Shown: positions 10,726 to 21,051 of the stretch, one piece after another
Layout of the letters: each line of letters starts with the position of its first letter
Position numbering within the stretch: position 1 is the stretch's first letter
Source of the DNA: Escherichia phage CBA6
Reading direction: 5' to 3' (one strand)
Sequence record: KM389302.1
DNA: 25,398 bases
Notes under the pieces: model-generated
What the model was told of the DNA's origin: nothing
The model's database searches: none
Seen by the model: the letters and a program-made list of their open reading frames with translations, nothing else
Made by a program: the position numbers and the translations under genes

Positions 10726-10750
10726 AAATAAAAACCCCGCCGAAGCGGGG
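10726..10750 (-). terminator. Intrinsic terminator with a UUCG tetraloop, downstream of the 653-aa tailspike gene
   Basis: Minus-strand RNA folds as ccccgc-uucg-gcgggg followed by uuuuuauuu. Confidence 0.65.
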
Positions 10751-10757
10751 GATTTCA

Positions 10758-12719
10758 TCAACCGATTGTGAGATTAAATTCCATTTCTGTTACGACTGCA
10801 GATGGATTGTATAACGTAATTGTCCACGAAAAATCGTTAGTTTTCGAAATGACACAATATCTTCCTGTGCCTGGGGAACTAAAAGATGCCGCTAATTTAT
10901 TCATGCTTGTAAATGAATTTATCACCCAAACACCAGGAGATGTCTTCGTTACCGAACAATTAACTGCACTCGTCAGAGCACCAGAACCATTTACAATCAC
11001 TGATATTGGTTCGTCCAGAATTCTAACCACTCCGGAGTTTAATGAATATGAATTCATAACAGTTCCAATACGATTTCCCTGTAAATATGTGATGGCAGTA
11101 GAAGCCAGTCCCGTTCTATTCAACAATACATTTGTAACTCCCAAACCAGTACAACCCAATATTTGTGTGTCAGACACTAATCCAGACGTGGTGCTGGTTT
11201 GTTCACAAACCGCGTCCACAACATTACTACCGTTGTAACAATTGAAAGATACATTTATCAATTTATTTCGTCGTATTGATTTGCCTGCATTAGATTGTAT
11301 CTGTAATACACGGTTATATTGGCCAGGTGTATTAATCTGCACAAAACAATTTTGAATAACATTGTCATAACTATCAGTTAATGAAACGTTATGGTCAGAA
11401 ATACCGAAAGCAGATTTATAATCTCCATTATTGTTCATTTGAATAAAAACACCTTCAACGGTGTTATTGCTACAACCTTGTATTGCTATGACGTGGTCAT
11501 TCCCGTTAAATGCTCCTGCGGAAATAGAAACAAATTTACCACCAATGATTTTGCAGCCAGAACAACCTCTGGAAAATTTGATATTATTGTTGCCGCCAAC
11601 GACACCACCGACGTCGCCCAAATTAGCAGAACTCATTATTCCTTCACAATTTATGAATTGGAAATCTGTGGTTGGGAATCCAACACCATCTGCTGACGTC
11701 CCATGGAAATTAATCAATAACCCATTTTCCGCATAACCTTCAGATACATAGCCACCTTTACAACCCAGAACCTCCATATTCCCGCCAGCTTGAGAAACTC
11801 CAACGAATCTCGGATATGTGATTTCTGGGTACAATGCACCTATAATAACAAGGTTCCCGTGATTTGGTCCTTTAAAACCTGTATTTTCAAATACACATTT
11901 GTTAGACCTAACCCCAACACGCCGAGAATTATCAGTTGAACCATAAGATGTGTTCCCCAATCTTAATGGGGTTACTGTTGCTGTGGTTGTCGTGAAGACT
12001 ACACCCGAAACTTCAGTATAATTTCCTGTTAATTCGATAGCCCCTTTATTCGTGTCAAACGAATTCCCCAACAAATTGATTTTGTTTCCGTTGCCAATGA
12101 TGCGTTTACTGTCTAAATTGTTCACCACGTTGCTCGACAACCCAACATCTATATCTAAAATGATCGTATTATACACATTTAGAAGATCATTCAATATATT
12201 TGAAACGTCTTCGCCAGAAGAAACCCAATTAGATATGTATGTTTCTTTCTCGCCAATATTATTTTTTACAAAAATCCAAGCTGAACCAGAAATACCACCA
12301 GTATTTTCCAACTTTTGGGTAGAGGGAACAATTTTTGGAAGAGACCCACCCCAACGATAAAAACAATTATTATGGCGTATCATTTCATTCTTAGTACGGA
12401 TTGTAAACCCATCTGAAAACTCTTCCGTCATTTCGATAAATTCGCCGCGCAATACAGCCAGCGCACCCAAATCTACAGTGCCTCCGGAGTGCGTGAGGAT
12501 GCCGTCGACTAAACTAGTGACCGTTACAGCACCAATGTTAGAAGGAAGAGCATAGGCACGTTGGGTCACCTTATCGTAGATCACTTTATAACCAGACAAG
12601 GACTGCCCTGATTTCGCATAAACGACTTCCGACTTTTTACACCCAAATTTACGAGCAATACTGTCTTTGTTCGATTCTTTTGAAGTAGAACCTTTTGGTT
12701 GAGCAAATTGCGGATTCAT
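10758..12719 (-). CDS. Tailspike protein, putative polysaccharide depolymerase (653 aa)
   Basis: N-terminal module (ARKFGCKKSEVVYA...YKVIYDKVTQRAY...YRWGGSLPK) is shared with the other tailspikes. The rest is N/G/S/T-rich with short repeats typical of a parallel beta-helix. AGGAG Shine-Dalgarno. Confidence 0.7.
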   Translation of the reverse strand: MNPQFAQPKGSTSKESNKDSIARKFGCKKSEVVYAKSGQSLSGYKVIYDKVTQRAYALPSNIGAVTVTSLVDGILTHSGGTVDLGALAVLRGEFIEMTEEFSDGFTIRTKNEMIRHNNCFYRWGGSLPKIVPSTQKLENTGGISGSAWIFVKNNIGEKETYISNWVSSGEDVSNILNDLLNVYNTIILDIDVGLSSNVVNNLDSKRIIGNGNKINLLGNSFDTNKGAIELTGNYTEVSGVVFTTTTATVTPLRLGNTSYGSTDNSRRVGVRSNKCVFENTGFKGPNHGNLVIIGALYPEITYPRFVGVSQAGGNMEVLGCKGGYVSEGYAENGLLINFHGTSADGVGFPTTDFQFINCEGIMSSANLGDVGGVVGGNNNIKFSRGCSGCKIIGGKFVSISAGAFNGNDHVIAIQGCSNNTVEGVFIQMNNNGDYKSAFGISDHNVSLTDSYDNVIQNCFVQINTPGQYNRVLQIQSNAGKSIRRNKLINVSFNCYNGSNVVDAVCEQTSTTSGLVSDTQILGCTGLGVTNVLLNRTGLASTAITYLQGNRIGTVMNSYSLNSGVVRILDEPISVIVNGSGALTSAVNCSVTKTSPGVWVINSFTSMNKLAASFSSPGTGRYCVISKTNDFSWTITLYNPSAVVTEMEFNLTIG

Positions 12720-12750
12720 AATAAGAATCTCCTGTTTTTCTCTAGTAAAT

Positions 12751-12767
12751 ACCCTCCGAAGAGGGGT
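12751..12767 (-). terminator. Hairpin with a UUCG tetraloop between the 926-aa and 653-aa genes; possible attenuator or weak terminator
   Basis: Minus-strand RNA folds as accccuc-uucg-gagggu, followed by only a weak U tract. Confidence 0.35.
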
Positions 12768-12773
12768 ATATTT

Positions 12774-15554
12774 TTAAATAGAAGAATCCAATATACGGTA
12801 ACTAATTAACTTATTAGGGTCTACAGGATTAATCAGGTTGTAGTACCGTGAAGCTACATAATCATTCTCAGAAGAGAACATACCAACATACACTTTAGCA
12901 CCTACACCAGAACAGGCATCCCCACCAGCATTGCTATCCGAGAAGAATGTTAATGAAGAAGTTAATCCGAATATAGAATTAAATGGTACAGCTAAATAAG
13001 CGCCTCGGAATGACCGTCTGATTCTCTTACCCGTCTGAATATTAAGAATACTCCACCAGAAATATCCAGGTTTAGCACCAATAGCTATATGATATGGCAC
13101 ACCACTTTGTAGTTTAAGGTCGTTAGGTAAATCCCCAGATAAAATTTGGGTTGTACCATCGCCCCCCAATAGCAAAGCAATTGTTTGTTTTCCGGAAGCG
13201 TCTATAACTAATTGAAGATGAAGACTGTTGGATGTATCACTAAACCCTGAACCAATGGCCATGAAGTTAAATACTTCAGCTCCAGATATGGTAGGTACTA
13301 CAACAGCAGCCATGGTAATACCTTCTGGACCTGCTGTTCTTGAGTACAGTAATTTATCTTTGTTGGCTTGTGATAGTCTCAGACCATTTACTTGCCCTAC
13401 AGAAGATGGGACACTTACATAAACAGGTGTAGTGCTAACACCATCAAATGTAGGGGTCTCGTTCATGGTTTGCAAACCAGTCTTGGAATAATTAACCAAT
13501 CCGTTAATGCTCAGGTCGGAATTTGTGGGGTTGATAATATTGTTATCACCAATAAAGTTAATGCCCATATAACCAGTCTCAACCACACCATTAATGGTGA
13601 CGCTGCAATCATTAGACAGGAACTGAAAATTGCCCGCACTAGAGTTAGCACCTGAACCACTATTCGCGGCATAATTGAGTCCTACGAATCCGTTGATAAC
13701 TGCATCACTTTTGTTAAATACGATGTTGTAGAAAGTGTTGTTAGCGTTGATGCCGTTACGATTGGTGTTCAATCCGTTCATGGAAATTGAATATGAATCG
13801 CTAATCTCAATGCCATTCCCGCCACAATCTTGTACCTCAATACCATTAATAACCATATTCTGGCTATTATTAATAGTAATGCCTGGGAACTGTCCTACTG
13901 TACCATAAGGTTGCCAGTTAGCCCAAATGAATTTACCACCAATAATACGACCATTACCACAACCATCAAGAACCAGACATTGTTTACCGCAGGTATTAAC
14001 CTGGATATTTGTCCAAGTCCAATCAGTAGTAGCACAACGGACGCCCACCTGATTGATGTGGTTGACTAAAAGAGAATCTGTAGTAACACTAAAGTTACCA
14101 CTATCAATATTTAACCCATATTCATCAAAACCTGCTATATGGACCTTAGAAATACACAAGTCGCGTCTTGGGTCTGCGGTAGTGTGGAACGGATAATCAG
14201 CTGAGAGACCTGAAGGAGTTTCTATATAGATACCTGTTGTACCCGCAGTAAATGATGTGCCTTGTTGTGCACCTGTGCCATATACCCCAAAGGAGTCTAA
14301 TACAATAAGGGAGCATGTATCTTTTATGGTAATACAATTCCCAGTAGCAGAAGGCAACTGATGCAACCTGGAGTAATGTAATCCAGACCCATAAATAGAC
14401 GACGTATTATATTTTAACCGGATATTGCTAACGTAATGTACACCAGTTAATTGTGTGGCCTTACCACTGTCCACACAAGATTGTACTGGAATAGTATCAT
14501 CATTAGAACCGCCCAAAGCACCAAACATGAATGGGTTAACTCTATCAGCATTAACACGTAACCAGGCTGCGCCTCCAACAGTTTTGATCACAGTGCCGTT
14601 ATCATCAGTCTTTCCTGTACCATCAATTAACGCACGGAATACCCCTCCACCAAGAAGAGTACCCGCAGTGTGTTGCTTAAGAATAATGCGTTGTCCATCC
14701 ATAGTGGGTTCAGTATTCCTGAGATCAGCAACAGAATGGCATTCTCCGATATACTTGGCACCATCATTGCGCCCCAGAGTGTTTATCACATTAATAAATG
14801 AATCTTCTAAAGGCAACAAATCCACTACAACATTACCTGGATTATAAGTAAGTTGCCCATTACTAACAGAAGAAATCACTGAACCATCAGGGATAGTTGG
14901 TAAACCATAAATAATCTGCGCCGCTGAATCATAAACAACTTTCTTGTCGTCGAGTAAAGATATGGTATCAGTGCTGACAATGACTTCAGAGTCTTTTACG
15001 TTAGCCGAACGGGCAATTTCTTGGATACTGCGATCGAACGCCGGACTGATGTTCGGTTGTTTAACAGACATCTCCGCAACAACCCACACCCCTGCAGTCA
15101 GCGCAGTTTGTAAGGAAACTTTCCCAGTCGTACTGTTGTATGAATATTCTATATCAGGAGTTTTGTACTCACCACCGATATAAAGAGACTGGACACCATA
15201 AGAAGTAAAGTCAGGCGTGAATTCAGTTTCTCCACCCACGGCTTGAAATTTGTATATTCGAATACCTTTAGAAGTATCTTCTGGTGAAAGAATTTTATCG
15301 AATAAGCAATACACAACATCGCCTTTGGACAATGCGCGCCCGAGATTCAACGTATTCCCGTCTATCTCGAAGTTGTCTAACGGAACTTGCATGCCGCCGT
15401 TAATTGTGATAACACCAGTGACAGGATAGAAAGGTAGAGAAAAGAAAGTTTCTCCACCGACACTTGATTTATAAGTGAAAGGAATCTGGTGGGGAGCTGT
15501 GACTACGCCGCCGAATAATTCTTCTACATTTCTGGTCATTTGAAAATACCCCAT
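12774..15554 (-). CDS. Tailspike protein with a T7 gp17-like N-terminal anchor domain and beta-helix body (926 aa)
   Basis: N-terminus IPFTYKSSVGGETFFSLPFYPVTGVITINGGMQVPLDNFEIDGNTLNLG fits the pattern of podovirus tail-fibre N-terminal anchors. Central region has tandem NG-rich beta-helix coils. The start may instead be the second ATG at 15539 (MTRNVEE...). Confidence 0.7.
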   Translation of the reverse strand: MGYFQMTRNVEELFGGVVTAPHQIPFTYKSSVGGETFFSLPFYPVTGVITINGGMQVPLDNFEIDGNTLNLGRALSKGDVVYCLFDKILSPEDTSKGIRIYKFQAVGGETEFTPDFTSYGVQSLYIGGEYKTPDIEYSYNSTTGKVSLQTALTAGVWVVAEMSVKQPNISPAFDRSIQEIARSANVKDSEVIVSTDTISLLDDKKVVYDSAAQIIYGLPTIPDGSVISSVSNGQLTYNPGNVVVDLLPLEDSFINVINTLGRNDGAKYIGECHSVADLRNTEPTMDGQRIILKQHTAGTLLGGGVFRALIDGTGKTDDNGTVIKTVGGAAWLRVNADRVNPFMFGALGGSNDDTIPVQSCVDSGKATQLTGVHYVSNIRLKYNTSSIYGSGLHYSRLHQLPSATGNCITIKDTCSLIVLDSFGVYGTGAQQGTSFTAGTTGIYIETPSGLSADYPFHTTADPRRDLCISKVHIAGFDEYGLNIDSGNFSVTTDSLLVNHINQVGVRCATTDWTWTNIQVNTCGKQCLVLDGCGNGRIIGGKFIWANWQPYGTVGQFPGITINNSQNMVINGIEVQDCGGNGIEISDSYSISMNGLNTNRNGINANNTFYNIVFNKSDAVINGFVGLNYAANSGSGANSSAGNFQFLSNDCSVTINGVVETGYMGINFIGDNNIINPTNSDLSINGLVNYSKTGLQTMNETPTFDGVSTTPVYVSVPSSVGQVNGLRLSQANKDKLLYSRTAGPEGITMAAVVVPTISGAEVFNFMAIGSGFSDTSNSLHLQLVIDASGKQTIALLLGGDGTTQILSGDLPNDLKLQSGVPYHIAIGAKPGYFWWSILNIQTGKRIRRSFRGAYLAVPFNSIFGLTSSLTFFSDSNAGGDACSGVGAKVYVGMFSSENDYVASRYYNLINPVDPNKLISYRILDSSI

Positions 15555-15640
15555 AAAGGATTTGCCAATATGGGGTATTTAGTCTGAACTAATAAAATTT
15601 TATGAACAAAGGTATGATAAAAACCCCGCCGAAGCGGGGT
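15548..15640. repeat. About 90-bp intergenic cassette, copy A
   Basis: Near-identical to 17678-17770. Contains a palindrome (aaatacccca / tggggtattt), the CTAAATA motif, and the UUCG-loop terminator. Confidence 0.8.
15576..15582 (-). promoter_or_regulatory. Candidate late promoter element CTAAATA upstream of the 926-aa tailspike gene
   Basis: Minus strand reads cagaCTAAATAcccc, 21-36 nt upstream of the candidate ATGs. Confidence 0.4.
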
Positions 15641-15647
15641 TTTTATC
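15616..15647 (-). terminator. Intrinsic terminator with a UUCG tetraloop, downstream of the 675-aa tailspike gene
   Basis: Minus-strand RNA folds as ccccgc-uucg-gcgggg followed by uuuuauc. Confidence 0.65.
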
Positions 15648-17673
15648 AATCGGCCGTTTTGATTGGTGAATACAGCCCGCCTCCGCGATGAATCCATGCA
15701 TAAACGTTATCTGTAGTTGGGGTTATCGCCGAACTCCGATAGAACATAAAACCAACAGGAGCACCGCTATAGTTAGGCATGGCATTATGTTTGCCTTTCG
15801 CTTTGTCCCACCCGCAAAACGTTGGCATTGGCGTTGCATGATATGCTGACGCATACACGCCGCCTATAGCAATCGACTTACCAGAATTTGTAGTAATCAT
15901 AATACGAGATGCTTTTGTTCTATCAACAGGTGCTGAAATTTTGTATAATCTCCAGCCATTTCCCATGTCGTAGAACTTAGTAGGATCACCGTAAATAGAA
16001 CCCTGTCCATCTGCCGATTGAATGTAAATGGAGTTAGGCTCACCACGCACAAACAGGGCGGCTCGAACGAAACCTGTAGCTGAACGAAGGCAGTTGATAG
16101 CAAAGTATACTTGTTCCGATACGCTTTCGTACCCTACATATCTACCGCATCCTGAAGGCTCATTTGCATCGGTTCCAAAAACCAAACCAGAATTAAGCCC
16201 ATTGAAGTCTACAGGATATCCGTTATTGTTAATAACACTCCAGTCACCACTTTGGCAAAGGTTTGAACCGCTCATGGATATAAAGTCACCACCCTGCATT
16301 CCAGCAGTATGGTCACTGAACATCGCGTGGTTCATATAGTGCATTGAACTTGCCATCATGCCGAATTGGCAACGATAACCGACAATGGACCACGGACCGC
16401 GGATTTTACCGTTTCCGTTTACTTCGCCATATAGACCAATGACGGTGTTATGCTGCGCAGGTACAGACACGTTGTCTAGAACATACCCCGCCGAACCACT
16501 AGCGTCCAGACCGACGAATGTGTTCGCATTACCTTCAGTATTACCACCTTCTGGAACCCATGTATGAGAACCTTTAATAAGAACTGAACCCACACATTGG
16601 GTGTATACGTTTTGATTACAAGACCCGGAAGATATATCAATAATAATTTGCCCGCCACCGGATGTGGTTCCAGCACGAATACGCGTGAAGTTATTCCAGT
16701 AACTACCACCGCGCCAAGGAATTAAGCCTGTAGGCGTAGTTTCTATACCGCCTTTTAACGTGAAGTTTGCCGAGCAATCTATGTTAGATATGTTATGAAA
16801 TTGTGCACCTTGAACTAACATATTACGACAGCTAATACCCTGTATGTCCAAAGAACGCGCATGAAGTATTAAAAAATCCGCATCAGGGATAATACCAAGA
16901 CACTCCACATTACAACGAACAATAAATTGTGCGTAATAAGCGTGATAGCCGGACAAATTGGCTATTGAAGTTTTGTAAATTCCTTTTGGTATGAATAACT
17001 TTCTTCGGTTTTTACCATACTCAACGAGAGCATTATAATCACTGTTAATCGCATCCAGAGCGGCACAAATAGCTGCTGTGTCATCCGTGACCCCATCCCC
17101 TACGGCACCCCATCCTCGAATGTCACCTTCATCACGCCAGCGAGCCATCTGCAATTCTGGGTAAAGAGTGGCTCCACTTGGATTAGTAATCTGGCTTCTT
17201 AATGACGCATCACCAACACTAACCCATGCACCTAAATCAACGCCGCCTGAGTTATCGGGTGTAGAACCAGCGGCAACTACCTTTGGCAAAGAACCATCCC
17301 ATCGATATTTTTCATCATCGTGAACAAGAAGTTCATTTTTCACATTAATGGTATGGCCGAAATTAAAAGAACCAGGTAAAGTCACATATTCTTCGCGGCT
17401 TACTGCTAATTCCCCAAGGTCTACAGAACCAGCGGAATGAGTGAGGATAGCTCTTTCATCCAGACTAATTGCAGTTGTCCCTGAAACAATACCGGAAGGG
17501 AGAGAATAAGCCCGTTGGGTAGACTCATCATAAATTACTTTAAATCCACTGAGATCAATACCGACAGTGAAATAAACGACTTCGTCTTCTTTGACACCGA
17601 AATTTCGAGCGATAGATTGTTTGTTAACTTCTATGGAAGTAGAGCCGCGTGGTTGATTGAATTGAGAAATCAT
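15646..17673 (-). CDS. Tailspike protein, putative depolymerase of the pectate-lyase-like beta-helix type (675 aa)
   Basis: Shared N-terminal attachment module (ARNFGVKEDEVVYF...FKVIYDESTQRAY...YRWDGSLPK). GWGAVGDGVTDDTAAICAAL matches the hallmark N-terminal motif of pectate-lyase-superfamily beta-helix enzymes. Confidence 0.75.
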   Translation of the reverse strand: MISQFNQPRGSTSIEVNKQSIARNFGVKEDEVVYFTVGIDLSGFKVIYDESTQRAYSLPSGIVSGTTAISLDERAILTHSAGSVDLGELAVSREEYVTLPGSFNFGHTINVKNELLVHDDEKYRWDGSLPKVVAAGSTPDNSGGVDLGAWVSVGDASLRSQITNPSGATLYPELQMARWRDEGDIRGWGAVGDGVTDDTAAICAALDAINSDYNALVEYGKNRRKLFIPKGIYKTSIANLSGYHAYYAQFIVRCNVECLGIIPDADFLILHARSLDIQGISCRNMLVQGAQFHNISNIDCSANFTLKGGIETTPTGLIPWRGGSYWNNFTRIRAGTTSGGGQIIIDISSGSCNQNVYTQCVGSVLIKGSHTWVPEGGNTEGNANTFVGLDASGSAGYVLDNVSVPAQHNTVIGLYGEVNGNGKIRGPWSIVGYRCQFGMMASSMHYMNHAMFSDHTAGMQGGDFISMSGSNLCQSGDWSVINNNGYPVDFNGLNSGLVFGTDANEPSGCGRYVGYESVSEQVYFAINCLRSATGFVRAALFVRGEPNSIYIQSADGQGSIYGDPTKFYDMGNGWRLYKISAPVDRTKASRIMITTNSGKSIAIGGVYASAYHATPMPTFCGWDKAKGKHNAMPNYSGAPVGFMFYRSSAITPTTDNVYAWIHRGGGLYSPIKTAD

Positions 17674-17706
17674 GATAATGCCCCATAAAGGATGACCAAT
17701 ATGGGG

Positions 17707-17713
17707 TATTTAG
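17707..17713 (-). promoter_or_regulatory. Candidate late promoter element CTAAATA upstream of the 675-aa tailspike gene
   Basis: Minus strand reads cagaCTAAATAcccc, 33 nt upstream of the ATG at 17673. Confidence 0.4.
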
Positions 17714-17745
17714 TCTGAACTAATAAAATTTATGAACAAAGGTAT

Positions 17746-17770
17746 GATAAAAACCCCGCCGAAGCGGGGT
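17746..17770 (-). terminator. UUCG-tetraloop hairpin, third copy of the conserved terminator
   Basis: Same ccccgc-cgaa-gcgggg sequence as at 10735-10750 and 15624-15639. Confidence 0.55.
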
Positions 17771-17776
17771 TAATGA

Positions 17777-17929
17777 GAAGCGCATGAACAAGAATATCGC
17801 GCAGAAAAGTCAGGTAAGCGCATAAAGGAACTCGAAGCGGAGAACGCCAGACTACGGCAGCAACTGGACGCGGCGAACGCGCAACTGTATTTTATTCTGG
17901 AGAATCTTAAGACGCAGCAGGTGGATTAA
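17777..17929 (+). other. Start-less 51-codon open frame encoding a coiled-coil-like peptide; possible gene remnant or acquired fragment
   Basis: Frame reads EAHEQEYRAEKSGKRIKELEAENARLRQQLDAANAQLYFILENLKTQQVD and ends at TAA 17927-17929. There is no in-frame ATG/GTG/TTG after the upstream TGA. The segment looks GC-richer than flanking phage DNA and is followed by a strong terminator. Confidence 0.3.
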
Positions 17930-17933
17930 GGAA

Positions 17934-17964
17934 AAGGCCCCGTAAGGGGCCTTAGTTTTATTTT
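17934..17964. terminator. Strong bidirectional intrinsic terminator
   Basis: aaggcccc-gtaa-ggggcctt followed by agttttatttt on the plus strand. It also lies just downstream of the minus-strand core tailspike stop at 17958. Confidence 0.7.
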
Positions 17965-20900
17965 GTACTAACGAAATCAAATTCGTGAAGAGCCATTGAA
18001 CCTGATGATATTCTTGCATCTAGTAAGGTGCCATCAATGGAAATTAACTTTTTATTCGCAATTGTTCCTATAAGAACACCATTACTAAAAAACTGAACTA
18101 TACCAGGTCCTTTACCGTTGTATTTAGCGGTTAAAGCGCCCTTCATTGGAGCTGAAGGTAAAGCAATGACGGTCTCTACTCCAGCAACGGATATAACACC
18201 ACGTATATCACTCCCTGTATTAAATCTGAATCCGAAATAGTTTCCTGATTCGAAACTTCCGGAATGTAATAGTCCTCCTGGTATGTTTTGCATGCTCCAT
18301 GCGATACTAAAGGCGCGGTAGTTGTTTGTCTCAAACTCATACGTTAATCGATGTTTTCTTGTTACACGATACCGACAAGTTCCACCAGAACTTGCTGCTT
18401 GCATATATAACCCATCATCCTCGAAATAAGTAAATGTGTCCGCAGGCTGAACTGTTGTTTTAGTGAATTTATCATGGTCCTGGAAAAGTGTATGGTAATG
18501 CGTTATGTCGTGGCGAGCGAATGCGTTCACACCCATGATTGTTTTAGATGCTTGTTCTATAATAAAACCAGCCATAACGCCATCAGAATACATTTGCGCT
18601 TTTTGACCAATAACAGGATGAAAATCATTCGCGATAATAGCCCCACCAATCGGCAGCGCGACATATTCGGTTAGCACCCCAGATGCTGGTGGTAGATTAT
18701 CAAGTTGGGTGCTGTTATAGTTAATAATACCGCCGTGTTTTGTTACTAATCCTGCCTTATTTATCGCGTTTCCAAATTGCGGCGATTCAACGCTTATTGT
18801 ACTGTTGTAAGCCTCAATGCATTTATCGACGCCTACGCCGTTGAATGATGGTTGAAATACGCCACCGCTGGTGCAGCCATAAAATTCAATGGATGCGTTT
18901 TCGTCAGAATGCGTGCGCCCCTTGAAGTTAATCTGTTCAATAGATGGTGAATATGGGGTTCCGCCACAGTTGAACAGTTGAATAGAGTTAAGGCTAACTT
19001 TGCTTGGGTCTGCTGACCTGCTCCCAATTTTTATTCCGGCTTGCTGGCTTGAACTAGGAGGGAACAATGGCGTACACCCACGCTTACTGCGAACAACGAC
19101 ATCCTCAGGAGTACCGGTGTTGCCGTAATTATCTGCAATACTAATTACAATTCGCTGCCAGTAATTGTTTGGAATGGCATCAACGGCATCTTGTACAGTG
19201 GGGTAATCTTCCGGAACCATGAGTGTTACAGGCATCGTGTAAATACCTGGCACTGTTGACGAGTTAACACCAAATGGGTGAATGTAACCACGATACGGAT
19301 CATTACCTCCGATAGTATTGATAAACCCTTCGATGCGCACTTTTGATGTATCAGTGTACAGATATCCACACTCGCCAATATCTACGCGGAACTTCGCAGG
19401 GATAGTCAGATCTTCTGTAAATTTCACTGGAACATTGACAAAAACACGACCATTACCAGAAGCTATGGCGCGTTTGAAAGCCTGCGTGTAGTCTGGTGCC
19501 GCTGGGTCTCCTGGCTCAACAAATGCGCGAAGGTCATAAAGTCTTTCCTGCTGACCGCCAGGGATTAAAAAACCTTTATCTCCTGTTAATTCAGTTCTTA
19601 ATGATGCATCACCAACGCTAACCCATGCACCTAAACCAACGCCGCCAGTTGTTGTCGGAGTTGAGCCAGGAGCCACAGTTTTAGGAAGTGTCCCATCCCA
19701 ACGATACTTACCGTTCGTATGGGTGAGTAATTCATTTTTAACATTGATAACAGCACCAGAATCAAATGTCCCAGACAAGGTAACATATTCTTCACGAGAT
19801 ACAGCTAATGCGCCCAGATCAACACTACCAGCAGAATGCACAAGTACAGCCGAAGAACTAAGGCTGACTGCCGTGGTTCCAGTCGGTAGCTCTGGAATAA
19901 AATATGATCTCTGTGTTACTTTATCATAGATAACTTTATACCCGCTTAACACCGCACCAACACTAAAATAAACAACCTCTGTATCTTTAACATTGGTTAC
20001 ACGAGCCACTTCCCGCAAAGTATAATCAATTTGATTATAGATGTTTGGCGTTCCATTGATAATTACAACAACTTCATCCTCTGCATCCAGTTCTTGCGCA
20101 AGAGTGATTTTACTGGTTAATGGATCAAATGTGAACCCCAGATTTTTATACTGGCGACTTCCGTTTATATCAATGGCCGGAACATCATCGACAACGATGT
20201 CTAACGTGATTTCGGTTTCACCACCAATCGCAGAACCCCCATTATAGACCCAGGTAATCGTAGAAGAACTAGAACCACCGCCATTACCCAATTGAATAGG
20301 AGTATATTCAATCACCTGAAGTTCTGTGCTGGCTGGCAAAGAAGGACTGAAAGTGATCACATTCCCATCTAGTGAATATTTGGATTCCGCAAGACGTTTT
20401 CCGTCAGCATACACGTCCACGATTGTTGGTGGCGTATTGAGAGTGACAGCGCTTGTTTCAGACGCCAAAATTTGTGTAAAAATCTCACGACTGTAGACAC
20501 GGCCTTGGCCAAGGCCGACGCCGGATGTGACAACCCAACCTTGTTCAGGCCCAGACCAAGTGAAAGTCGCCGACACGTTATCGGTGGATATCGTCATATC
20601 TTCGGTGGAGCCGTAAAGGTTATTTCCCGCTGGAGATACAGTCAATGGGTAAGTGGCGAATTTTCCATAAGCATCACAAATAGTAACGGAATCCCCAACA
20701 CGTGTAGGGGGAGGGAGAACCACTGTAGATGCCCCTGTGGTGTTATTAATGAGATAGCCGCGACCTTCTAACAAATTGCTAGAGGGAGCGTGAGGGAGCG
20801 TTTCCCAGCGTATTCCACCGCCCCCCCAAAGACAACCAACCACCGTTTTCGTAATAACCTTCAAATTCATCGCTATCAGGATTGTAACGTACAGAAGATG

Positions 20901-21051
20901 GAAGACCTGCAACTTCAGTATCTTCAGGGAATGTCATTACGGCACCAGGGGAATGCTCAATAGTGCCGGAGTTGTTGAAGCCTTTTATGTTCGAAGACTC
21001 AGAAGTTTCTAAACCCAAAGGGAAAAGAGGCTGTGTTGGTTTGTTAGCCAT
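17958..21051 (-). CDS. Core tailspike with a T4 gp10-like N-terminal baseplate-attachment domain; reading frame broken at a G7 homopolymer (about 1030 aa if fused)
   Basis: The 90-aa ORF (20779-21051) has a native-looking N-terminus (...VRYNPDSDEFEGYYENGGWLSLGG). After a one-base frame change at the tract it continues into the 984-aa ORF (GGIRWETLP...GRGYLINNTTGASTVVLPP...). The nominal N-terminus of the 984-aa ORF has no ribosome-binding site. Downstream are T7 gp17-like modules, a complete copy of the shared tailspike attachment module, and a beta-helix body. Confidence 0.65.
20821..20827. repeat. G7 (plus-strand C7) homopolymer tract at the frame junction of the core tailspike gene
   Basis: Minus strand reads TTG GGG GGG CGG. 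Deleting one G gives the in-frame fusion ...GGWLSLGGGGIRWETLP... Confidence 0.9.

Follow-up and report, generated by a model that had tools for sequence, protein, structure and literature searches.

A spacer behind a Kuttervirus tailspike gene as a probable recombination scar of Guernseyvirinae-type DNA

Introduction

What is a GC-richer segment, holding a coiled-coil reading frame without a start codon and ending in a terminator-like hairpin, doing between two tailspike genes? This question is raised by positions 17773-17957 of the DNA analysed here, a 25,398-nt stretch of Escherichia phage CBA6 (record KM389302.1), hereafter called the window. An original prediction, made from the letters alone, offered three answers: a remnant of an acquired gene, a peptide made from a non-canonical start, or a small RNA. 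We show below which parts of the segment have relatives elsewhere, where the borders of the foreign DNA lie, and why we favor the first of these answers.

The window covers the tailspike (TSP) genes of a Kuttervirus (family Ackermannviridae), and its closest relative is Salmonella phage vB_Sen_ST2, with 98.3% identity over 77% of the window. The large genes of the cluster lie on the minus strand throughout, and the segment under study (the island) lies in the spacer from the TSP4 stop to the TSP3 start. The tailspike genes are:

10758-12719, minus strand, TSP1-like gene
12774-15554, minus strand, TSP2-like gene, 926 aa
15646-17673, minus strand, TSP3-like gene, 675 aa
17958-20912, minus strand, TSP4-like gene, 984-aa ORF
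20779-21051, separate TSP4 N-terminal ORF, 90 aa

There are thus four tailspike genes in 10758-20912 of the window and three in vB_Sen_ST2 (L014 11328-19572), which is devoid of a TSP3-like gene. It needs to be mentioned that a homopolymer at 20815-20821 carries a +1 frameshift that splits TSP4; the coding strand has G7 in the window versus G6 in Mutine and vB_Sen_ST2. This leaves the 90-aa N-terminal ORF and a 984-aa ORF without a proper start; either the sequence is in error here or TSP4 is genuinely inactivated. Near position 41 (ORF 20-2152) there is a C4 run versus C3 in vB_Sen_ST2, which shifts the large terminase ORF at its 3' end (710 aa in the window versus 736 aa annotated in ST2); a further homopolymer indel is found at about 10687 (T3 versus T4). 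An independent assembly was sought for checking such indels. A protein identical to TSP3 was found on a single 2.1-kb Logan contig, SRR547957, which ends before the island, and no record of the 984-aa TSP4 product was found.

Results

The island is GC-richer than its surroundings and carries a frame without a start codon

The GC content of 17773-17957 is 0.503, while the window as a whole has 0.437 and the adjacent spacer (17674-17772) 0.384, and so the GC-richer segment of about 185 nt that had been described between the start of the 675-aa gene and the tailspike stop does exist. Yet its value is only about 1.5 sd over the mean (sd 0.043; 6.7% of 185-nt windows have at least this GC content), and by composition alone the island is not striking. 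Translation of the plus strand gives a frame with no internal stop:

17777-17926, plus strand, relic frame, 50 sense codons EAHEQEYRAEKSGKRIKELEAENARLRQQLDAANAQLYFILENLKTQQVD, followed by TAA at 17927-17929

A TGA at 17774-17776 closes this frame upstream. The encoded peptide reads KRIKELEAENARLR... and includes the segments IKELEAENAR and QQLDAANAQLYFILENLK. There is neither an ATG nor a TTG in 17777-17926, and the single GTG is the penultimate codon; the frame had been predicted to be start-less, and with 50 codons plus TAA at 17777-17929 and no canonical start this proved correct. The listing of ORFs contained none of at least 20 aa on the plus strand inside the island. ATG triplets are present at 17773 and 17784, in the two other frames.

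The island is related to a small gene of Guernseyvirinae phages and to the hairpin behind it

We compared the spacer by blastn with a collection of 50,697 phage records (2.3 Gb), and the best match, with E = 5e-30, goes far past what chance would give. Between about 17816 and 17963 the window resembles, at 70-94% identity, siphophages of Guernseyvirinae with genomes of 40-45 kb, among them Cornellvirus VSiP, Kagunavirus K1G, K1H and phiWAO78-1, and Jerseyvirus. Altogether 218 phage records match the relic in DNA, and among the matches listed all but one are 40-45 kb Guernseyvirinae-type genomes with a complete gene. The best DNA match among the fetched loci is the metagenomic contig L010 (92.8% over 139 nt, 17822-17960), while the identity is 89% for L011 and L012 and 83% for VSiP. 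On L010 an SNF2 helicase gene is followed by a 78-aa small gene and then by a convergent 821-aa product in the tailspike position, for which a Pfam search gave no match. Representative loci of the small gene, whose proteins are numbered P0001-P0163, are:

L001, 3905-4105, Guernseyvirinae small gene
L002, 3968-4105, Guernseyvirinae small gene
L010, 1595-1831, Guernseyvirinae small gene
L017, 5001-5255, Guernseyvirinae small gene

The same relationship is found at the protein level. A search with the relic frame in a set of 5.8 billion protein sequences gave E = 1.3e-11, and the profiles phrog_5915 (E = 6.8e-19) and phrog_13851 (E = 1.9e-13), both of unknown function, were matched; Pfam gave only sub-threshold coiled-coil matches (bZIP_2, DUF1192). 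More than 300 cluster representatives of the family, 46-88 aa in length, are present in the 5.8-billion protein set; where they come with long contigs, these mostly measure about 40-45 kb. The relic matches the consensus of the conserved family core IKELEAENARLRQQRDAANAQLDFILE at 25 of 27 residues, and its two deviations, R15L and D23Y, are present in 4 and 2 of 108 family members, respectively. Its C-terminal tail is ENLKTQQVD, to be compared with ENLKTQQAD or ENLKTTQVD in members of the VSiP/phiWAO78-1 type.

As to the family itself, the 27-aa core is almost invariant across 108 representatives, and the N-termini, of 13 to about 50 residues, show little or no similarity between subgroups. 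Some records label family members as 'exonuclease subunit' or 'RNA polymerase II subunit'.

In the home genomes the small plus-strand gene follows helicase, HNH or primase genes as the last gene of a replication operon, and it abuts or overlaps the stop of the preceding gene. Wherever enough flanking DNA was fetched, it converges on a tailspike gene, from which it is separated by the hairpin GAAAAGGCCCCGTAAGGGGCCTT alone. Two named members are Salmonella virus VSiP gp32 (AXQ70217.1, ...MKRIKELEAENARLRQQRDAANAQLDFILESQENG) and Escherichia phage phiWAO78-1 gp36 (QQV88056.1, ...QKRIKELEEEVLRLRQQRDAANAQLAFVLEKLSEE). The relic resembles both in its core, in the type of its tail, in the hairpin and in its convergence on a tailspike stop; the family layout, with a shared GC-rich hairpin between the two convergent genes, is thus found in the window. 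On the other hand, only the last 50 codons are present here, with no start codon and no replication operon upstream. What lies upstream on the plus strand is a Kuttervirus terminator and, in antisense, the start of TSP3. The carrier also differs, being an Ackermannviridae myovirus, whereas the VSiP and phiWAO78-1 genes sit in siphoviruses of 40-45 kb.

The GC content of the relic (0.50) agrees with that of the Guernseyvirinae-like loci (0.49-0.52) and not with that of Kuttervirus (0.42-0.44), which supports an import. A search of 5,426 complete E. coli genomes with 17773-17931 gave no match, and the host was therefore rejected as the source. The proposal that the island is the remnant of an acquired gene is thus borne out by homology to both the Guernseyvirinae gene and its terminator, with another phage group, not the host, as the origin; of the two kinds of database that had been suggested for BLAST, it was the phage records that gave the match.

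The small gene is cut at its 5' end, exactly behind the resident terminator

The relic frame aligns without gaps and in frame with residues 35-84 of the 84-aa P0051, P0145 and P0146 (members of this type have 81-84 aa). It is identical to P0051 at 37 of 50 positions and to P0145 at 37 of 49, the N-proximal EAHEQE.RAE...KRIKELE included. These proteins read MAIDETAAKTAFKALDI...RGWT-EAHEQEARAESAEKRIKELEAENARLRQQRDAANAQLDF..., and in the DNA alignment homology to the small gene extends right to 17777. It follows from this in-frame alignment that the gene is cut at its 5' end, with codons 1-34 missing; judged from the alignment, the relic is the 3' 60% of a small gene that lacks its 34 N-terminal codons and its start codon. 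A complete ORF with a start codon, as members of 46-88 aa have, is absent, and the relic is thus a fragment of a member and not a member gene.

On the other side of the junction, 17674-17771 is an ordinary Kuttervirus TSP4/TSP3 spacer, 93-99% identical in many kutterviruses. This homology stops at 17771, which is the end of the stem of the resident terminator and marks the left junction. A three-way alignment of the window, Mutine and L017/L018/L021 leaves a few bases between the two homologies:

17772-17776, plus strand, junction bases AATGA

They have no counterpart in the Kuttervirus backbone or in the Guernseyvirinae gene, and they contain the closing TGA. No record among the 50,697 phage records spans at least 80% of 17674-17966, and so there is no other listed Kuttervirus with this insert.

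An intact but frameshifted gene was also considered, namely a 48-aa ORF that would run from the ATG at 17784 with one extra A in an A4 run (MNKNIAQKSQVSA*), since the distance from this ATG to the core equals that of short-form members. This candidate was rejected, as the 13 codons upstream of the core match the 84-aa members in frame. The ATG at 17784 falls within conserved Ala-His-Glu codons and, on this alignment, is fortuitous.

Two hairpins of different origin flank the relic

The terminator scan and folding gave one hairpin on each side of the relic:

17752-17771, minus strand, resident Kuttervirus intrinsic terminator AACCCCGCTTCGGCGGGGTT, followed by TTTAT
17934-17953, both strands, imported bidirectional hairpin AAGGCCCCGTAAGGGGCCTT, with tail AGTTTTATTT to 17963

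The resident terminator folds at -15.1 kcal/mol (z = -3.3), and the scan flags it on the minus strand. In Mutine, where this hairpin carries a terminator annotation, the TSP4 stop adjoins it directly. The hairpin AAAACCCCGCCGAAGCGGGGTT follows three tailspike genes of the window (the other copies are at 15620-15641 and 10731-10752) and is also present in many kutterviruses. The spacers 15565-15641 (upstream of TSP2, after the TSP3 stop) and 17696-17771 (upstream of TSP3) are near-identical, sharing copies of 36 nt and 47 nt that include terminator AAAACCCCGCCGAAGCGGGGTT. This terminator fits the published description of 'motif three', a conserved terminator of about 20 nt that lies directly after each Kuttervirus tailspike CDS and has been proposed as a recombination hotspot (PMC10408124), and it is a candidate for that motif.

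The imported hairpin has, on the plus strand, an 8-bp stem with 6 GC pairs and a 4-nt loop followed by AGTTTTATTT, and it folds at -17.2 kcal/mol (z = -2.55). It is flagged by the scan on this strand, where it has the GC-rich stem-loop and the U tract of an intrinsic terminator. On the minus strand the fold has -15.4 kcal/mol and is followed by UUUUCCUU (UUUUCC, four U), and the scan does not flag it. The strong terminator of the original prediction is thus real on the plus strand, but not on the minus strand, from which the tailspike genes are transcribed and where there are only four U.

The TSP4 stop codon (17958-17960) lies within the tail of the imported hairpin, 4 nt past the stem. A tailspike stop 4 nt past the stem is likewise found in L010, L017 and L018, and VSiP, phiWAO78-1, L010, L017 and L018 all have this hairpin where the small gene and the tailspike gene converge.

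The coding part of the island is probably inert

As the first 34 codons, the start codon and the operon have been lost, the coding part of the scar is probably an inert pseudogene fragment. Could it nevertheless be a live small gene? Translation might begin at a non-canonical start, or an ATG (17784 or 17773) might be masked by a 1-nt indel, be it real or a sequencing error. It is true that no stop interrupts the intact 27-aa core, that a 1-nt change would join either ATG to the relic frame, and that the window contains the G7/G6 frameshift in the TSP4 homopolymer and the indel near 41, so that indel errors are conceivable. However, the codons that precede the core, EAHEQEYRAEKSG, align in frame with residues 35-47 of the 84-aa proteins, so that the ATG at 17784 is a chance triplet and the 34 N-terminal codons are truly absent. 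No Shine-Dalgarno-like sequence is evident by eye for the relic, and the sole plus-strand promoter-like match (17591-17618) is a plain consensus inside TSP3, of a kind that occurs at chance frequency. Moreover, the upstream gene that the copies in the home genomes abut or overlap is missing here. We thus regard a live gene as very improbable, and the suggested peptide from a non-canonical start finds no footing in a frame deprived of its N-terminal codons, of a ribosome-binding site and of its parent operon.

A small regulatory RNA would be a discrete plus-strand transcript ending at the strong plus-strand terminator. Such a terminator is indeed present, and the segment lies between two hairpins. 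But a search of Rfam 15 gave at best 20.4 bits against a gathering threshold of 55, with all E-values at least 0.2, which is nowhere near the gathering score of any family. The conservation is of a protein type, as core changes are synonymous and the amino-acid sequence is invariant; a credible promoter is absent, and the terminator is accounted for by its role in the donor genome. This part of the original prediction found no support, and we consider a small RNA here hardly credible at all.

Since the imported hairpin has only four U on the minus strand, TSP4 transcripts probably read through it and cross the relic as an antisense 3' UTR, and they would stop only 160 nt later, at the resident terminator. 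The hairpin itself may provide partial termination or 3' end stability for the TSP4 mRNA, and on the plus strand it would halt antisense transcripts before they reach TSP4.

The foreign DNA includes the receptor-binding part of TSP4

The foreign DNA does not end with the island. Homology to Kuttervirus (vB_Sen_ST2), which stops at 17771, restarts only at 19596, and the two limits define a replaced block of about 1.8 kb, approximately 17772-19595, composed of the TSP4 receptor-binding module (RBD), the imported hairpin and the gene fragment. The features of its right side are:

17958-19595, minus strand, TSP4 receptor-binding module, replaced segment of the Kuttervirus backbone
19595-19709, minus strand, conserved stretch at the anchor/RBD border, with a TSP3 copy at 17196-17310 (direct repeat D1, 75% identity)

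The stretch 19595-19709 is the likely site of the 5' crossover. The closest protein to the RBD is P0121 (77-78% aa identity; 77% over 612 aa; 75% in DNA over 17958-19584), followed by P0123 with 70%. The RBD homology to L006 ends at 19584 on the right and at 17956-17958 on the left, while the Guernseyvirinae-like homology takes in the hairpin and its tail and ends at about 17961. By tblastn the 50,697 phage records gave as RBD relatives only six Vibrio phage records with less than 60% identity (27-34% in the table), and IMG/VR gave one 56% relative, located beside an integrase-like gene end as read from the downstream translation.

The nearest RBD relatives (54-78% aa identity) belong to tailspikes that are encoded on temperate siphophage contigs or by prophages of E. 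coli and Citrobacter. The two contigs that were fetched, those of P0121 and P0123, resemble temperate siphophages and have, downstream, an O-antigen acyltransferase gene and a different hairpin, and the small gene is not the neighbor of the RBD. These relatives and the acyltransferase neighbor are hints of an unusual O-antigen target.

The hunt for the donor by way of its RBD, in phages, IMG/VR and the 5.8-billion protein set, yielded no Guernseyvirinae donor, and none of the fetched Guernseyvirinae-like loci has a related RBD. Exact patterns of the left part and of the right junction were absent from viral and metagenome contig collections, and that of the right junction also from a genome contig collection.

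Discussion

The island as a probable scar of a tailspike exchange

In our opinion, the island is very probably a recombination scar, left when the TSP4 RBD was replaced by Guernseyvirinae-type foreign DNA, and it most likely arrived during that swap of the receptor-binding part of the tailspike. In the proposed scenario, a Kuttervirus exchanged the receptor-binding part of its fourth tailspike gene for DNA of a Guernseyvirinae-type siphophage, in which a tailspike gene and a small gene on the opposite strand would share one hairpin terminator. The 5' crossover would have taken place at the conserved anchor/RBD border (about 19590). The imported block would then comprise the RBD, its stop codon, the shared hairpin and the last 50 codons of the neighbor gene. 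At the 3' end the join would be illegitimate, inside the small gene of the donor and at the resident terminator of the recipient (17771/17777).

The direction of transfer, from Guernseyvirinae to Kuttervirus, appears clear, given that the genes are complete in Guernseyvirinae-type genomes and that no other listed Kuttervirus has the insert. The relic shows no decay, as it has no stops and both of its core changes also occur in intact members. This fits a recent transfer and is no proof of selection.

As no donor was found, the RBD and the scar may have come in two steps. In that case, the relic and its hairpin would stem from an earlier RBD of Guernseyvirinae origin. The present P0121-like RBD would have taken its place later, out of a temperate siphophage or a prophage, and the 3' crossover would lie at the stop codon or in the terminator tail. 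The closest RBD relatives do lie in lambda-like temperate contigs and prophages with different genes and hairpins downstream, the ends of the L006 homology and of the Guernseyvirinae flank are within a few bases of each other, and the Guernseyvirinae-like loci that were fetched have unrelated RBDs. However, this would require two rare events at one site, and a Kuttervirus with the relic and another RBD is absent from the 50,697 phage records. Furthermore, a stop codon inside the hairpin tail is the native arrangement of Guernseyvirinae, and these phages swap RBDs among themselves, which makes a donor with this RBD plausible. We therefore find two separate steps rather unlikely, although a real chance should be left to them. 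The sequence itself shows the homology, the truncation, the two junctions and the structure of the terminators; we infer that a single event brought in both the RBD and the scar, that the donor was of the Guernseyvirinae type, and that the relic is not expressed.

Relation to known tailspike exchanges

Kutter- and Kagunaviruses have been reported to exchange RBDs, which are preceded and followed by conserved motifs (Virol J 2023;20:174, PMC10408124), and these motifs, including the post-tailspike Kuttervirus terminator, were proposed as hotspots of recombination between Kutter-, Kaguna- and other lytic genera (PMC10408124). The present case resembles those exchanges, as far as they are described in the passages on RBD exchange, in that the replaced segment reaches from the anchor/RBD border to the conserved Kuttervirus terminator. 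The partner lineage also appears on the exchange list of that paper, as Kagunavirus belongs to Guernseyvirinae. It differs from what those passages describe in that the 3' crossover overshot the tailspike, so that a second terminator and a piece of the adjoining gene were imported; the same passages make no mention of a passenger gene fragment.

A comparable piece of the small gene was found in Agtrevirus, between two tailspike genes:

L003, 4001-4056, 56-nt Agtrevirus relic
L015, 3945-4000, 56-nt Agtrevirus relic
L025, 6337-6392, 56-nt Agtrevirus relic

The carriers are Salmonella phages P46FS4 and pSal-SNUABM-02 and the 160-kb IMG/VR contig UViG_3300045988_142553. As in the window, a piece of the core (ENARLRQQRDAANAQLDFIL, 89% DNA identity) lies in the spacer after an Ackermannviridae tailspike gene; unlike in the window, it is shorter, cut at both ends and without the Guernseyvirinae hairpin. 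Because the subfamily (Aglimvirinae), the RBD and the junctions are all different, the Agtrevirus relic is most likely an independent event, which suggests that the same kind of overshoot occurred at least twice. The nearest relative of the Agtrevirus tailspike outside Ackermannviridae is found in the 44-kb Salmonella phage Shemara (38% aa identity).

It is tempting to speculate that the small-gene core and the hairpin form a portable homology arm at the 3' side of tailspike cassettes, which would also work across phage families. If this were true, the pieces found after tailspike genes in two Ackermannviridae subfamilies, with their differing junctions, would mark a recurrent crossover site and would not be passengers by chance; at present we hold this idea to be doubtful. 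In a weaker variant, a truncated coiled-coil peptide may still be expressed and interfere with co-infecting Guernseyvirinae.

Significance

Modular tailspike exchange that leaves debris on its flanks is well known, and the scar reveals no new mechanism; this instance is new and unusually well resolved. For annotators the scar is a caution, since neither a gene nor a small RNA should be called at this place. Its value is that of a base-level record of one cross-family tailspike swap with both junctions mapped, in which the passenger DNA allows the donor lineage to be named, although the RBD has no close relative among sequenced phages. Such a record is useful for picking cut sites in engineered tailspike swaps and for tracing the evolution of host range in Ackermannviridae.
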